A DNA stretch of 64,000 nt from Candidatus Peribacteraceae bacterium (GTDB lineage: Bacteria; Patescibacteriota; Gracilibacteria; Peribacterales; Peribacteraceae): assembly GCA_030750465.1 (NCBI GenBank), contig JASMHZ010000002.1:1948-65947 (forward strand), given 5' to 3'. This document shows positions 2,974 to 53,242 of the stretch, piece after piece. The notes below the pieces were generated by a model, which saw only the letters and a list, made by a program, of their open reading frames with translations, searched no databases and had not been told where the DNA came from. The position numbers and the translations under genes are program-made. Numbering within the stretch: the stretch's first letter is position 1; every line of letters begins with the position of its first letter.

Positions 2974-5076
2974 TTAAACGCATTCAATAGGATCCACATC
3001 TACAACAACTCCCTTAAGATCCAGTTGCTTCAACACTTTCTCGGGATTAACCCCCCTGATCAACACCTGCCAAGTCTTACCTCCGCCGAAAAGTTGGGGT
3101 GATGCATGTGAAATTAGATCTGACTCGGATCGGATTTTATCACGAAGTTCTTTGGCTTTGGTCTCAGGATCTTCCCTGACGACAAGTCTGATTATTTTGG
3201 TTGCTGGCGGATATCTGGCATGGATTCGCAGTTTCAGCTCTTCATCCAAGAATTCTTCAGTTTTATGCTCGGCGGCAAACTTAACTTCCGGTGCATTTGG
3301 TCTGAAGGTTTGAATTATCACTTCGCCGGTCTTTGCCCTGCCTGATCTTCCCGTTAGTTGCGTGAGCAATTGGAAGATTCTTTCGCCTGCACGAAAGTGT
3401 GGGAGGCTTAGTCCAACATCAGCAACTAAAACCGCAGCCAATGTCACATTAGGAAGATCAAGGCCTTTTACAACTGATTGTGTTCCCAAAAGAATATCAG
3501 CCTGATTCTCTCTCATTTTTTTAAGAAGAAGTCTCATATGTTCAGGATGAGTTAGAGTGTCGCTATCGGCTCTCAGAAGTCTTGCATTAGGGAACTCTGC
3601 GTTCAAAATCTCTTCTATGCGCTGTGTACCTGCGCCTATTGCATGAAGTCTGACTGAGCTACATGATGGACAAGTCGCAGGAACTTCTCCGCGTGTGCCA
3701 GTTGTATGATCGAGCAAGTAAGGATTGCCCTGATAATCTTTGTGTACTGTGAATGGCAGATTGGATTCGGGAGATACAATTCTTCTTTTGCAGTCCAGAC
3801 ACATGAGTGCAGAAGAAACTCCTCTTCTATTAATAAATAAAACTGATTGCTCGTGCTTTTTAATTCTGTCCGAGATCGCATCAAGCAATGGGGGAGTGAA
3901 TGGGTATAGCTTTCCAAAATTTGAATCTGCCAAATCAATAATTCTGACACTAGGAAGAGGCTGATCTTGATAGCGCTCAGTAAGTTTTACAAAATTATAT
4001 TCACCTGACTTGGCTCTTGCCCAAGATTCAAGTGAAGGTGTCGCAGTTCCAAGTACCAGCTTAGCTCCCGCAAATTCGCAAAGCTTAACTGCCGTCTCTC
4101 GTGCGTGATAACGCGGACTCTGTTCATTCTTGTATGTCCATTCATGCTCTTCGTCGATTATGACTAAGCCTAAATTGGGTACAGGAGCAAATAATGCGCT
4201 TCTGGAGCCTATAACAAGACTAATTCCACCATTATGAATCTTGGTCCATGCTCTTCTGCGCTGAGCGATTGTGAGTCTGCTGTGAACTACTGCTATGTGC
4301 TTAAGCCCAAGCAGCTCATCAAAACGATGTATGCAGTGTTCAGTTAATAAAATTTCAGGTACAAGCAGTATTGCTTGTTTGCCTGAATGAACAGCATCTG
4401 AAATCATTTGGGCATAGATCTCTGTCTTTCCGCTTGATGTGATTCCAAATAGTAATGAAGGCTTATCTGACTTCTTGATTTTTTTATATGCTTCATTTTG
4501 AGCATTTGTAAGTTTAGGTTCATTTATCTCAGGCTTGATGTGGTCGTAAGTCTCCTCTCGCTCTTCCATCGCAAGTCTGCCTTTTTCTGCTAACTTCTTC
4601 AAACTTGAACCCGATACGTTTATTTCATCTTTAATCTGCGAAAGCGGCACCCAGTCTTTATCTCGCAGATATTCAACAATCATCTGTTGGTTTACTCCGC
4701 GCTTAGGAATAGTTGGATCAATTAATTTGAAGTAAGGCTCTTTCTTAGGCTTTAGTTTCTTCCAACTCGGAGTTGGAAGCCAAACTCGAAGCGCTTGCCT
4801 GAGGGAACAGCAATAGTAATTACTTATCCATTCTAAGGTCTTTAACTGAGTAGAGTTTAGAAGAGGGGACTCGGCCAAGACTGCCTCTACATTCTTGATA
4901 TCGAAATCTTGGTCTTTGCGTTGTTTCATAACTTCAAACACAACACCTTCGACAATCTCTTTTCTAAGCGGAATTGAAACATGCGAGCCCTCCTTCAGCT
5001 CAAAATCTCCGCAATCGTATGTAAGACCATTGCCGATTCCGGGAGAGCGCGAACGTGTGAGGACTCTGCAGAGCAT
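2974..5076 (-). CDS. priA: primosomal protein N' (replication restart helicase PriA)
   Basis: Walker A GITSSGKTEIY, the DEEHE box, a Cys-rich zinc region (CLDCKR...CPSCSS) and a length of 700 aa. Confidence 0.93.
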   Translation of the reverse strand: MLCRVLTRSRSPGIGNGLTYDCGDFELKEGSHVSIPLRKEIVEGVVFEVMKQRKDQDFDIKNVEAVLAESPLLNSTQLKTLEWISNYYCCSLRQALRVWLPTPSWKKLKPKKEPYFKLIDPTIPKRGVNQQMIVEYLRDKDWVPLSQIKDEINVSGSSLKKLAEKGRLAMEEREETYDHIKPEINEPKLTNAQNEAYKKIKKSDKPSLLFGITSSGKTEIYAQMISDAVHSGKQAILLVPEILLTEHCIHRFDELLGLKHIAVVHSRLTIAQRRRAWTKIHNGGISLVIGSRSALFAPVPNLGLVIIDEEHEWTYKNEQSPRYHARETAVKLCEFAGAKLVLGTATPSLESWARAKSGEYNFVKLTERYQDQPLPSVRIIDLADSNFGKLYPFTPPLLDAISDRIKKHEQSVLFINRRGVSSALMCLDCKRRIVSPESNLPFTVHKDYQGNPYLLDHTTGTRGEVPATCPSCSSVRLHAIGAGTQRIEEILNAEFPNARLLRADSDTLTHPEHMRLLLKKMRENQADILLGTQSVVKGLDLPNVTLAAVLVADVGLSLPHFRAGERIFQLLTQLTGRSGRAKTGEVIIQTFRPNAPEVKFAAEHKTEEFLDEELKLRIHARYPPATKIIRLVVREDPETKAKELRDKIRSESDLISHASPQLFGGGKTWQVLIRGVNPEKVLKQLDLKGVVVDVDPIECV

Positions 5077-5131: not shown

Positions 5132-5282
5132 GTCTGAACCTTGATTTTTTCCACACGTAGAGCACGTCTTCGACGTGCGATGTAAACCAATAGCATTGAT
5201 CGCAGGTCTGGATTCGACAAGCTCACCACAGGGAAGACCTGCTCTCATCCATGATAAATAGATCGTGAATCAGGATTCAGAC
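5132..5282. mobile_element. MITE-like element, copy 1 (~151 bp)
   Basis: Terminal inverted repeats GTCTGAACCTTGAT and ATCAGGATTCAGAC. Internal hairpins GCACGTCTTCGACGTGC and GCAGGTC...GACCTGC. Roughly 80 percent identical, in reverse orientation, to 39363-39514. Confidence 0.7.
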
Positions 5283-5351
5283 AGATGGTGAACAAATAAA
5301 GAACCTGCACTCTAGCCATATGTGTGGTTTTGACGTAGAATAGGAAGAGAT

Positions 5352-5372
5352 CGGGGCTAGCTTAAGTTGGCT
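5352..5372 (+). repeat. decayed echo of the tRNA-Pro 5' end
   Basis: CGGGGCTAGCTTAAGTTGGCT compared with the tRNA 5' end CGGGGCGTAGCTCAGTTGGCT, located 107 nt upstream of the gene. Confidence 0.6.
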
Positions 5373-5458
5373 GTCGAGCGCACGCGAAGCGGGAGCGAGC
5401 AAATTAATAACCAGTACTCTAGCCATTCATCTGTTCTTTCATCATAATAGAAACACGT
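5373..5458 (+). promoter_or_regulatory. conserved tRNA promoter/leader cassette (tRNA-Pro copy)
   Basis: 86 nt, about three quarters identical to 19236-19322 on the minus strand. Contains TAGCCA-N17-CATAAT (-10 at 5443-5448), ending 10 nt before tRNA position +1. Confidence 0.55.
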
Positions 5459-5535
5459 CGGGGCGTAGCTCAGTTGGCTAGAGTACCTGCTTTGGGAGCA
5501 GGGGGTCGCTGGTTCGAGTCCAGTCGCCCCGACCA
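5459..5535 (+). tRNA. tRNA-Pro (anticodon TGG), CCA encoded
   Basis: Manual cloverleaf: acceptor stem CGGGGCG/CGCCCCG, anticodon stem CCTGC/GCAGG, loop TTTGGGA, T-loop TTCGAGT. Confidence 0.93.
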
Positions 5536-39045: not shown

Positions 39046-39363
39046 ATGATAAGAGATCTACTGGAAAACGCATCCATAATCGAGATCGTTGCTACGTTTG
39101 TAGCCCTGGCATTAATTGCTGCAACTATCCTTTGTTTGGTTTACATAATTGTTGGAGGCATAACTTTCATTCTCTCTGCGGGGAATGAAGAAAAAATTAA
39201 GAAGGCAGTACATACAATAAGGTTCGCAATCATAGGACTTTTTGTATCTTTCATTGCGTTCTTCATAGTTAAATTCATGGCAGTACTTCTGGATATTCCA
39301 TTTGATCTATCATTTAGCTTAATTATAGATCTCGTGGGCGATATCTTTAGTGCGCTTGAATAG
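39046..39363 (+). CDS. small two-TM protein, T4SS-pilin-like (TrbC/VirB2-like) family common in CPR
   Basis: LVYIIVGGITFILSAGNEEKIKKAVHTIRFAIIGLFVSF fits the GG..(Y/F)I.SAG....K.A...I..AIIGL pattern of that family. Confidence 0.5.
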   Translation: MIRDLLENASIIEIVATFVALALIAATILCLVYIIVGGITFILSAGNEEKIKKAVHTIRFAIIGLFVSFIAFFIVKFMAVLLDIPFDLSFSLIIDLVGDIFSALE

Positions 39364-39514
39364 TCTGAACCATGATTAATCCATTATTTACATAAATGAG
39401 AGCAGGTCTTCCCTGTGGTGAGCTTGTCGAATCCAGACCTGCGATGTATTGACATGTTATAATCGCACGTCGAAGACGTGCTCTTCGTGTAGGTAAAAAT
39501 CACAAGGTTCAGAC
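39363..39514. mobile_element. MITE-like element, copy 2 (152 bp), filling the gap between two stop codons
   Basis: TIRs GTCTGAACCATG and CAAGGTTCAGAC, with the same internal hairpins as copy 1. The first base is the G of TAG (39361-39363). The last 6 nt are the Val codon and TGA of rpsP. Confidence 0.75.
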
Positions 39515-39994
39515 ATCTGATTCTTCTTTCTTAGCTTCTTCTTCAGCTGGCTTTTCTGCTGGAGCTTCTTCGTTGGCTGGGGCTGGTTCTTCTGAAGCTT
39601 CAACAGGCTTTTCATTTGGTTTATCTTCAGCTGGAGCTGGTTCATCGCCACCACTTAAATCTTCGACCTTCTCGGCCGGGGCCTCTGCAGGAGTTTCTTC
39701 TTCAGTCTCCTTCTTCTTTTTCTGCTTTGTGTACCTGAGGATATATTGATCCATCCCATCCATTCCATCTTTCTTAAGAATTCTTGCAAGTGTATCGCTT
39801 GGTTTAGCTCCCTTTTCCATCCAATATTTAATTCGGTCTTGCTTTAATACCAAATGAACAGGATCTCTTTGTGGAATGTAATTACCAACAGTTTCGAGCG
39901 ACTTCTTTTTTACAGGATCGGATTTCTCGGCCACTACAACCTTGTAAGTGGCTTCTTTATTTTTGCCTGTGCGCTGGAGTCGGAGTACTAGCAT
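39509..39994 (-). CDS. rpsP: 30S ribosomal protein S16 with an ~80-aa E/P/A/K-rich C-terminal extension
   Basis: MLVLRLQRTGKNKEATYKVVVAEKSDP...GAKPSDTL is the bS16 core. The remainder is low complexity. Confidence 0.9.
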   Translation of the reverse strand: MLVLRLQRTGKNKEATYKVVVAEKSDPVKKKSLETVGNYIPQRDPVHLVLKQDRIKYWMEKGAKPSDTLARILKKDGMDGMDQYILRYTKQKKKKETEEETPAEAPAEKVEDLSGGDEPAPAEDKPNEKPVEASEEPAPANEEAPAEKPAEEEAKKEESDV

Positions 39995-51850: not shown

Positions 51851-52003
51851 ATCTGAATCTTGATTTAGCTCTCACACGGAGAGCAGGTCTTCGACCTGCG
51901 ATGTTGTTGATAGAAATCGCACGTCGAAGACGTGCTCTCAATCATGTTAATCTTTTAATAATGCCTGTCCTGAGCTAGTCGAAGGGTGAATCTTGTTTCA
52001 GAC
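51851..52003. mobile_element. MITE-like element, copy 3 (~153 bp, diverged)
   Basis: Ends ATCTGAATCTTGAT and ATCTTGTTTCAGAC, with hairpins GCAGGTCTTCGACCTGC and GCACGTCGAAGACGTGC. The last 6 nt are the Val codon and TGA of recA. Confidence 0.65.
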
Positions 52004-53098
52004 TGCAATTGTCATAATCTTCTTTTCAAGCTCCTGAGCAAGCTTCTTATCATCAATCAGTGTCTGTCTAGCCTGTTCCCGCCCTTGCCCCAGAGTATTT
52101 TCGCCGGTCTTAAAGTATGCTCCTGACCTCTCAATTAATCCATATTTAACTCCCAAATCTATGATATCTCCTTCCTTGCTTATTCCTTGTGCGTAAAGAA
52201 TATCAAATTCTGCCTGTTTGAATGGGGGGGCAATCTTGTTTTTAACGATCTTTGCGCGTGTTCTGTTTCCAACTACTTCCTGCCTGTCGGCCGTAGCCTT
52301 GGCGGAGGCTGGCATTTTACTCGTTTTATCGTCAGAATTTGCCGTGGATGGTGCTTTCTCCAATATTTTATCAATTCTTCTTACGTCGATTCGCACAGAC
52401 GAATAGAACTTAAGGGCATTGCCTCCTGTTGTAGTCTCGGGATTTCCAAACATTACTCCTATCTTCATTCTTAGCTGATTTATGAATATAACAGTACAGC
52501 TTGTTTTGCTGACTATAGATGTAAGTTTTCTGAGTGCCTGACTCATTAGTCTCGCCTGAAGCCCCATATGGCTGTCTCCCATCATTCCTTCGATTTCTGC
52601 TCTTGGAGTAAGGGCTGCAACAGAGTCGATAACTATAATGTCTATTCCTCCCGACCTGACAAGAGTCTCTGTAATTTCCAAGGCCTGTTCTCCATCATCT
52701 GGTTGAGATACCAAAAGGCTATCTACATCAACTCCTATCTTTCGGGCATATTGAGCATCAAGTGCATGCTCAGCATCGATGAATGCTGCTTTGCCTCCGG
52801 CTCTTTGTCTTTCCGCTATTGCATGCAAGGCGAGAGTTGTTTTACCGGATGACTCCGGTCCGTATATTTCGACAATGCGTCCTCCGGGAAGCCCTCCTCC
52901 CAATGCAATATCCAGCGATAGGGATCCTGATGGATACCTTTGAATATCAATTATATTATCTTTGTTCATTTCCATGATTGCACCGACTCCGTATTGCTTT
53001 TCTATACTAGCGAGAGCAGCAGTTACAGAGTCTAGCTTTGCATCATGTGGAATTGAGTTTATTTTTTGTTGTGGAGTTTTTCTTGTTGTCTTTGGCAT
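51998..53098 (-). CDS. recA: recombinase RecA (with a ~24-aa insertion)
   Basis: [22 protein letters not shown] and [10 protein letters not shown] take the start at MPKTTRK (53098). The ORF-track extension to 53191 is unlikely. Confidence 0.93.
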
Positions 53099-53242
53099 TG
53101 GATAGGGGAGTAAATGCTTGCACTGAGCAAGTCGAAGTGTAAAGAATAATATATAGGTGATTGAACGTACACCATAGTAAATGGTCTGCAATCTTTATCA
53201 AGAAGTAGGGGTTGATGGTTTGTTTGTCTGTTGTATAATGGT

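Follow-up and report, generated by a model that had tools for sequence, protein, structure and literature searches.

Nested palindromic repeats in a Peribacteraceae genome: probable REP doublets of a RAYT system within gene-less GxxExxY-type hairpin shells

The subject of this study is a repeat of ~152 bp that is present in three copies in a window of 64,000 nucleotides, the window being the whole stretch of DNA that was analysed, from contig JASMHZ010000002.1 (C22) of a Candidatus Peribacteraceae bacterium (assembly GCA_030750465.1). This assembly, G000, totals 1.0 Mb in 64 contigs, with 42% G+C and 82% completeness; other genomes, contigs and loci are cited by handles of the same kind (G003, C4, L070). 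Copy A lies at 5132-5282 (-), copy B at 39363-39514 (+) and copy C at 51851-52003 (+), each with terminal inverted repeats (TIRs), GTCTGAAYC...GGTTCAGAC, and two hairpins, GAGAGCAGGTC..GACCTGCGAT and ATCGCACGTCGAAGACGTGCTCT. The initial annotation had reported these three copies, with their shared termini and hairpins, and had read them as a miniature inverted-repeat transposable element (MITE). The copies themselves were confirmed, A and B being 85% identical across their full length of 152 nt (E = 5e-38), and C being diverged, with only the hairpin core and degenerate ends in common with the other two. On the evidence given below, the hairpins are termed repetitive extragenic palindromes (REPs), their associated enzyme a REP-associated tyrosine transposase (RAYT), and the outer palindrome bounded by the TIRs the shell. 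The features of the three copies are as follows.

5132..5282, minus strand: copy A, composite, 56 nt upstream of the open reading frame (ORF) 2974-5076(-)
5159..5181, minus strand: REP-b of copy A
5199..5246, minus strand: REP-a of copy A, identical to REP-a of copy B, with the same 24-nt loop insert
39363..39514, plus strand: copy B, composite of shell termini and REP doublet, between the stop codons of two convergent genes
39363..39379, plus strand: left terminus of the copy B shell, GTCTGAACCATGATTAA, the same as the termini of the genus-wide family
39398..39445, plus strand: REP-a of copy B, GAGA-GCAGGTC-(27-nt loop)-GACCTGC-GAT, its stem and flanks matching the REP family
39412..39435, plus strand: mini-hairpin module in the REP-a loop of copy B, CC-TGTGG-TGAGCTTGTCGAA-TCCA, absent from the G005 orthologue
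39446..39461, plus strand: spacer of the tail-to-tail REP doublet of copy B, differing from the copy A spacer
39462..39484, plus strand: REP-b of copy B, ATC-GCACGTC-GAA-GACGTGC-TCT, with an identical unit beside the RAYT gene at G000:C4
39498..39514, plus strand: right terminus of the copy B shell, ending ..AATCACAAGGTTCAGAC
51851..52003, plus strand: copy C, composite, with degenerate termini ATCTGAATC...GTTTCAGAC
51879..51902, plus strand: REP-a of copy C, simple form GAGA-GCAGGTC-TTC-GACCTGC-GAT
51916..51938, plus strand: REP-b of copy C
51964..51988, plus strand: mini-hairpin module in the 3' arm of copy C, CCTGTCC-TGAGCTAGTCGAA-GGGTG

The convergent neighbours of copy B are a gene for a 105-aa membrane protein and rpsP. 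The TAG stop (39361-39363) of ORF 39046-39363 overlaps the first base of copy B, and rpsP, at 39509-39994(-), ends ...GAT GTC TGA (39509-39514) within its right terminus; in the same way, ORF 51998-53191(-) ends GTC TGA (51998-52003) within the right terminus of copy C. The elements therefore fill these intergenic gaps to the base. The rpsP product carries a long acidic C-terminal extension. A tRNA gene (5459-5532) lies about 175 nt from copy A, and positions 5300-5420 hold a repeated segment that precedes tRNA genes, with a tRNA-like 5' part (GGGATRTAGCTYAAGTTGGCTGTCGAGCGC.CGCGAAGCGGGAGCGAGCAA), which is also found three times in tandem at G000:C5:24100-24450.

Scanned across the whole assembly, internal hairpins and terminal repeats proved to be distributed differently, which makes the two layers separable. 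Further copies, for which the initial annotation had suggested a search, do exist, as both the termini (7 hits in G000) and the hairpins (13 units) are dispersed, but they are dispersed separately. The hairpins are thus not internal parts of a single element, as had been supposed, but an independent REP family with a RAYT of its own. Each REP unit has a 7-bp stem, a GAA/TTC triloop, a GAGAGC 'head' and a GCGAT 'tail', and the 13 units of G000 occupy eight loci, all of them intergenic. Dozens more are present in other Peribacteria metagenome-assembled genomes (MAGs), and a unit identical to REP-b of copy B was found in G003, G005, G006, G007 and other Peribacteria MAGs. Hairpin CGCACGTCGAAGACGTGCTCT and its partner form a doublet at C4:20967-21025 without any GTCTGAACC ends, a TIR-less doublet of the opposite order lies at C4:24597-24663, and singlets are found at C4:21503, C16:1202 and C41:372. 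Most doublets of G003, G006 and other MAGs are likewise without shell termini.

The pairing of the REP stems was assessed on units gathered by their fixed anchors alone, stem pairing not being demanded. Complementarity of the variable stem was bimodal, with 74 units pairing at 5/5 positions and the chance background lying at 0-3. Across 76 distinct units, which are not phylogenetically independent, 99.1% of cells were paired and 4/7 stem pairs had changed on both sides, in 55 cells. The covariation score was reached by none of 500 shuffles, and in slid-register controls pairing fell to 24-45% in every register. Eight stem variants were observed (ACGTC, AGGTC, GCGTC, GGGTC, GGATC, AGGCC, ACCTC and ACGCC), each with its exact complement, which favours a single-strand hairpin over a sequence-specific duplex operator; a protein-binding DNA palindrome was rejected on the same ground, as the stems covary instead of conserving sequence. 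The 27 distinct doublets comprise 17 head-to-head and 10 tail-to-tail arrangements, with spacers of 16-105 nt, and all but one are heterodimers, in that the stems of their two arms differ (26/27). In 22 of these heterodimeric doublets the two arms differ at stem position 2, one having C and the other G. From the variant frequencies ~29% homodimers would be expected, giving a binomial tail of ~1e-3 (calculated by hand, with shared ancestry uncorrected). Such a mismatch between arms disfavours the formation of one long inter-arm hairpin.

A search of the genus with the Pfam profile Y1_Tnp located an ORF of 144 aa at G000:C4:21039-21473(-), exactly between the hairpins of contig C4. Read along its coding strand, the gene is preceded by a REP singlet, 30 nt before the ATG, and followed by a tail-to-tail doublet that starts 14 nt past the stop. 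The protein scores 100.1 bits on NCBIfam NF047646, the REP-associated tyrosine transposase (an equivalog model with a cut-off of 80), and 36.8 bits on Y1_Tnp. Its only match in the PDB is E. coli TnpArep (4ER8, E = 5e-10), the alignment placing PDHCHF against PEHMHC and YIHNNPVK against YIYINPVK (C4 query and chain, respectively), and the two query stretches are read as the putative HUH and tyrosine motifs. Orthologues flanked by the same hairpin family were found in at least six other Peribacteria genomes, at 55-96% identity, among them G007 (96%), G004:C16 (62%), G003:C158 (63%) and the Peribacteria loci L070, L071 and L115 (55-61%); L135 is likewise flanked. No shell termini are present at these orthologue loci. 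Other RAYT lineages of the genus are flanked by other hairpin families (e.g. CAGCAGCACCCG..CGGGTGCGGT), and in G000 itself there is a paralogue at C8:8861-9295 (97 bits on NF047646), flanked by GTAG-type hairpins (GTAGCGCGGGGATACCTCCCCGCGCTA), and another at C11:39034-39468 (80 bits). Up to eight RAYT-like paralogues per ~1-Mb genome occur in this bacterial family, and 112 of 301 sampled Patescibacteria genomes gave a RAYT-type match at E <= 1e-10, 24 of them above the curated cut-off. By its association with the hairpins and by covariation, the C4 RAYT is identified as the predicted cognate enzyme of the REP family in the window. The earlier remark that no transposase was in view therefore holds for the window but not for the assembly, as a matching RAYT lies on contig C4.

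Two contigs (L106 and L078, JAIPIN01) labelled as belonging to a Kiritimatiellales MAG, with 39-43% G+C, also carry this REP family. The RAYT of L106 is 63% identical to the C4 protein and lies between two REP units ~540 bp apart. These contigs are probably mis-binned and Peribacteria-like; horizontal transfer would be the other explanation.

The outer layer has a different range. The terminus pattern TGTCTGAACCNNGAT occurs 0-57 times per genome (57 in G006, 20 in G007, 12 each in G003 and G021, nine in G005 and seven in G000), the counts taking in two other genera, with 12 and three occurrences, and the reversed control giving none. Twenty shell copies that were fetched, 19 from G006 and one from G007, are palindromes of ~90-130 bp with arms of ~40 bp and a variable centre. 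The arm consensus of these 20 copies is TGTCTGAACCWTGATT....TGATTAAAGGATTA..WTGATT, in which GATT(A) sub-repeats recur about every 9-10 bp, and in the window copies only the outer 12-20 nt of such arms are kept in clear form. The centre may hold a TGTATGTACATTGTACATACA palindrome, GC-rich hairpins or a GxxExxY gene. Within G000, GTCTGAACC...GGTTCAGAC pairs with other interiors are found at C5:471-569, C5:23977-24073, C10:19244-19388 and C8:3849-4381, the last of which encloses an ORF of 125 aa. A GxxExxY gene lies at G000:C8:3970-4347; the GxxExxY gene in the shell scores 145 bits on TIGR04256 and 139 bits on PF13366 (PDDEXK_3). The eight genomes of the genus contain 15 GxxExxY genes, of which 8 have a terminus on either side, at a spacing of ~480-540 bp, and two more have a single terminus. 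Between shell termini in eight genomes no transposase gene was found, GxxExxY being the only gene cargo. These results show that the full-length form of the shell is a cassette of ~0.5 kb with one GxxExxY gene, of the PD-(D/E)XK type, and not a transposase, and that the termini of the window copies are the ends of a gene-less copy of this genus-wide hairpin shell. A full-length element with the same TIRs, for which the initial annotation had proposed to look, is thus real, but what it encodes is a protein of the PD-(D/E)XK fold in place of a transposase. The observation that target-site duplications were not visible was borne out, as none was found at A, B, C or their orthologues, nor in the 20 shell copies from G006 and G007.

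In four of the G006 copies (L230, L243, L244 and L246) the terminal 10-12 nt are partly repeated immediately beyond the end (..TTGTCTGAACCCACT/TGTCTGAACC.., the slash marking the end), which may be a trace of end processing or targeting. Two candidates for a mobiliser of the shells were rejected. An autonomous transposon with the same ends was sought in a 2.2-kb TIR-to-TIR interval (G003:C4:7116-9364), but this holds ordinary chromosomal ORFs, with no transposase-like product seen by eye (it was not profile-searched), and its ends are two unrelated solo termini. The IS200 TnpA at C5:24677-25114 lies ~600 bp from a shell and is not bounded by termini, and TnpA strength across genomes does not track shell abundance.

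A third layer is formed by smaller modules. The long first hairpin of copies A and B is the short hairpin of copy C, enlarged in the loop by 24 inserted nucleotides (CCTGTGGTGAGCTTGTCGAATCCA). Copy C holds, in its extra 3' segment, a variant of the module at 39412-39435 of copy B in which the closing pairs are swapped from GG..CC to CC..GG. This accounts for the shorter first hairpin and the extra segment that the initial annotation had correctly ascribed to copy C. The mini-hairpin, CC(C)-TGAGCTTGTCGAA-GG(G), is dispersed, with covarying closing pairs, and can lodge in the loops of other elements. It is present at eight or more other sites in G000 (including C5:11845, C7:4802, C16:782, C21:4451, C55:40439 and C64:33427) and in G003, G004, G006 and G007, with 24-nt stretches that are 100% identical in G004 and G006. 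Two other small palindromes were noted. One, TGTATGTACA(A/T)TGTACATACA, recurs in and beside shell centres (G000:C10:19300-19330, G000:C5:575-600, the locus B orthologue on G007:C13, and G007:C9:11307-11462), and the other, a GC-rich hairpin family (CCCCCTCTCC..GGAGAGGGGG / CTCCCCTTCCTCC..GGAGGAAGGGGC), is dispersed and also lodged inside shells (the locus C orthologue on G007:C13, L021 on G006:C50, and G000:C5:11800-11860, C11:78830 and C16:750).

The order of events can be followed at orthologous sites. At locus B, where the left junction GAATA/GTCTGAACC is identical in G005 and G007, G005 has the shell with a REP doublet, of which REP-a has a simple TTC loop without the 24-nt insert, and the shell of G007, with precisely that left junction (GAATA/GTCTGAACCATGATTAA), is typical and free of REPs. 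The site is occupied in G003 by a related palindrome, and in G002 solely by a hairpin that resembles a terminator and precedes a T-rich run, as judged by eye and without a terminator scan. At locus A, a site occupied in all close relatives, both G005 and G007 carry a typical 98-bp shell without REPs and with identical junctions (CTGCAATT/GTCTGAACC...GGTTCAGAC/AGGTGG); G000 retains the outer ~15-20 nt around an interior like that of copy B. At locus C, G007 has a shell remnant filled by other GC hairpins and G005 an 18-bp remnant resembling the two ends joined. The shells are therefore old and syntenic, lying at gene ends, and it is their interiors that have turned over. As sister genomes have a shell or remnant with another interior at the same junctions, the interior, the REP doublet forming hairpins (REPIN), is the recent part. 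These sites show that the doublet was in shell B before G000 and G005 split, and that at A and C it is confined to the lineage of G000, where the RAYT is still present. Orthologous loci, the comparison of which was proposed initially as a way to define the target site, were compared for all three copies, and a shell or its remnant was already at the same junctions in sister genomes, so the 152-bp unit did not arrive as one insertion.

Taken together, it is considered likely that each window copy consists of a gene-less hairpin shell of the GxxExxY type in which a REP doublet of a RAYT system is nested, and both of these palindromic elements are probably selfish. Five of the seven testable features of REP/REPIN-RAYT systems are found in the inner layer, these being extragenic palindromes, compensatory stems, head-to-head and tail-to-tail doublets with singlets, hairpins flanking a RAYT gene, and a protein of the RAYT-type HUH/Y1 class; the tag and the copy number do not agree. 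By analogy with E. coli TnpA-REP and with IS200/IS605, the RAYT would recognise the REP hairpins on single-stranded DNA, cut and rejoin them, and in this way could spread or homogenise REP units, and, as the two arms of a doublet almost invariably differ, each would be made to fold on itself. For the arrival of doublets at A and C two routes are conceivable: the RAYT may have inserted them into an extruded shell, at its centre, where the DNA is single-stranded, or shells may have recombined or undergone gene conversion with one another through the ends that they share. More tentatively, it is possible, though rather doubtful, that shells are preferred landing pads or recombination scaffolds for RAYT-dependent doublets, and that the C/G asymmetry of the arms would give the RAYT a 'left' and a 'right' end identity, like the left and right ends (LE/RE) of IS608.

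Several observations weigh against the interpretation of a nested RAYT-dependent doublet. The flanks of the REP unit, (C/G)AGA..GCGA(T/G), contain no GTAG or CGTC outside the stem, and only 13 units are present in the 82%-complete 1.0-Mb assembly, which is few for a REP family, tens to hundreds per genome being the usual number, although the assembly is fragmented and the count is a lower bound. A single doublet (the copy B orthologue) persists in G005, from which the cognate RAYT is absent, so the enzyme is not needed for persistence. Both REPs are identical in A and B, including the 24-nt loop insert, and their spacers are unlike, for which a simple copying of B into A is insufficient; the pattern is suggestive of homogenisation unit by unit, and not of a single, simple act of copying. 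The energy model gives one long imperfect hairpin per copy and not two separate hairpins, and the limit of homology with the ancestral shell rests on few bases.

Among the alternatives, the one that survives best is that the copies are RNA elements serving the host, the nested hairpins being transcribed and terminating transcription or protecting mRNA 3' ends, with their spread as a by-product. Copies B and C do abut the stop codons of flanking genes, the G002 hairpin with its T-rich run lies at the position of locus B, and all three copies fold far below shuffled controls (z -3.2 to -5.7). Such roles are reported for REPs in other bacteria (PMC3733652). However, searches of Rfam 15 gave no match to the copies, tRNAs being the sole matches over the whole window at gathering thresholds, and a permissive local search of 39300-39580 giving no match below E = 2.6. 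The orientation relative to neighbouring genes is also not fixed, both doublet orders exist, copy A lies upstream of a gene and not at a 3' end, and the strict association with a transposase gene would be left unexplained. This alternative is therefore regarded as unlikely, but it is not exclusive of the nested-doublet interpretation, with which it would be compatible that the composites may double as 3'-end structures.

Less probable still, and quite improbable overall, is a classical MITE, in which the 152-bp unit would have arisen by deletion from an autonomous transposon with the same TIRs and would be moved whole by a transposase acting in trans on the termini. The form of the elements partly supports such a reading, as they are small, without coding capacity, intergenic, bounded by TIRs and present in multiple copies, the terminus family is dispersed with varying copy number among congeners, and the homology of A and B extends beyond the REPs up to the termini. 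The mechanism is not supported, given the lack of a target-site duplication in 3 + 20 copies, the presence of GxxExxY cargo alone, and no transposase partner, between such termini in eight genomes, the occurrence of the hairpin core without termini, and the fact that in sister genomes the corresponding junctions of loci A and B already enclose shells. That all REP-bearing elements form one divergent shell subfamily mobilised by the GxxExxY nuclease, with the hairpins beside RAYT genes arising by chance, is highly improbable, for although shell centres hold many different small palindromes, evolve fast and lie between termini that also bracket GxxExxY genes, the same hairpins flank RAYT orthologues in at least six other genomes where shell termini are absent, different hairpins accompany different RAYT lineages, and most doublets in G003, G006 and other MAGs are without shell termini.

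Two further candidates were rejected outright. The core resembles a perfect four-way junction, also in circularly permuted form, and could recall a hammerhead, twister or hairpin ribozyme, but no ribozyme core motifs were found, and the permutation is simply the head-to-head or tail-to-tail order of two inverted REP units, which also occur singly. The attC sites of integrons have the core sites R''/R' in the form RYYYAAC...GTTRRRY; the ends found here are GTCTGAAC...GTTCAGAC, in which the fourth base of R' is C and not a purine (an integron integrase was not searched for).

The 144-aa RAYT and its 21-nt hairpin offer a testable enzyme-substrate pair from a phylum without a genetic system and with very small genomes, in which RAYT-type genes are common, and a literature search found no paper combining REPIN or RAYT with terms for the Candidate Phyla Radiation (CPR). 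Should the tentative landing-pad and end-identity idea be true, this REPIN system would be a minimal one, open to experiment, within a genome of ultra-small size. What look like MITEs in genomes of this kind can be nested palindrome stacks, the layers of which are separated by orthologous-site comparison, and for annotation it matters that the elements touch or supply the stop codons of their neighbours, including that of rpsP.

In comparison with known systems, the inner layer is like the REP/REPIN-RAYT systems of E. coli and Pseudomonas (PMC3116915, PMC3337134, PMC5581495; 4ER8) in having short extragenic palindromes whose hairpin fold is maintained and which occur as spaced inverted doublets or singly, a transposase gene flanked by its own REPs, a protein that lies above the NCBIfam RAYT cut-off and aligns to 4ER8, and a repeat family that varies with RAYT lineage. 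Heterodimeric head-to-head and tail-to-tail dimers are themselves a described feature of REP families (PMC3733652). It differs in its host, a ~1-Mb CPR (Peribacteria) genome, in having about a dozen units per genome, in its triloop and lack of a GTAG tag, most catalogued REPs being defined by an unpaired GTAG or CGTC tag at the palindrome end (PMC3733652), and in that the window doublets lie inside another palindromic element. RAYTs in Proteobacteria are typically single-copy (PMC5581495), whereas several paralogues of RAYT-like genes per genome are present here.

REP dimers within longer palindromes have been described for GTAG-15 of Anabaena variabilis and CGTC-1 of Halothiobacillus neapolitanus, and in those two species no 'target palindromes' free of REPs were found (Di Nocera et al. 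2013, PMC3733652). The window copies resemble these cases, with a REP doublet central in a longer inverted repeat, both head-to-head and tail-to-tail orders, and heterodimeric arms, but differ in that most shells are free of REPs, and that such shells have a gene-bearing form and are traceable at orthologous sites.

Bacterial MITEs such as Correia/NEMIS, RUP and Nezha share a size class, TIRs, an intergenic location and a multicopy state, all of which are seen here too. Unlike them, the present elements have no target-site duplication and no transposase-encoding partner, and between orthologous sites their interior varies but their ends do not. The outer layer instead follows the design of the GxxExxY (TIGR04256 / PDDEXK_3) cassettes, for which, as for the genomic context of GxxExxY, a literature search found no published description. 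These have ~40-bp arms of periodic sub-repeats, lie at gene ends without target-site duplication, and exist in a ~0.5-kb ORF form with a single gene and in more numerous gene-less copies, in a layout related to that of the ORF-bearing intervening sequences of 23S rRNA. Relative to such cassettes, the window copies have shortened arms and a centre taken by the REP doublet of an unrelated system.

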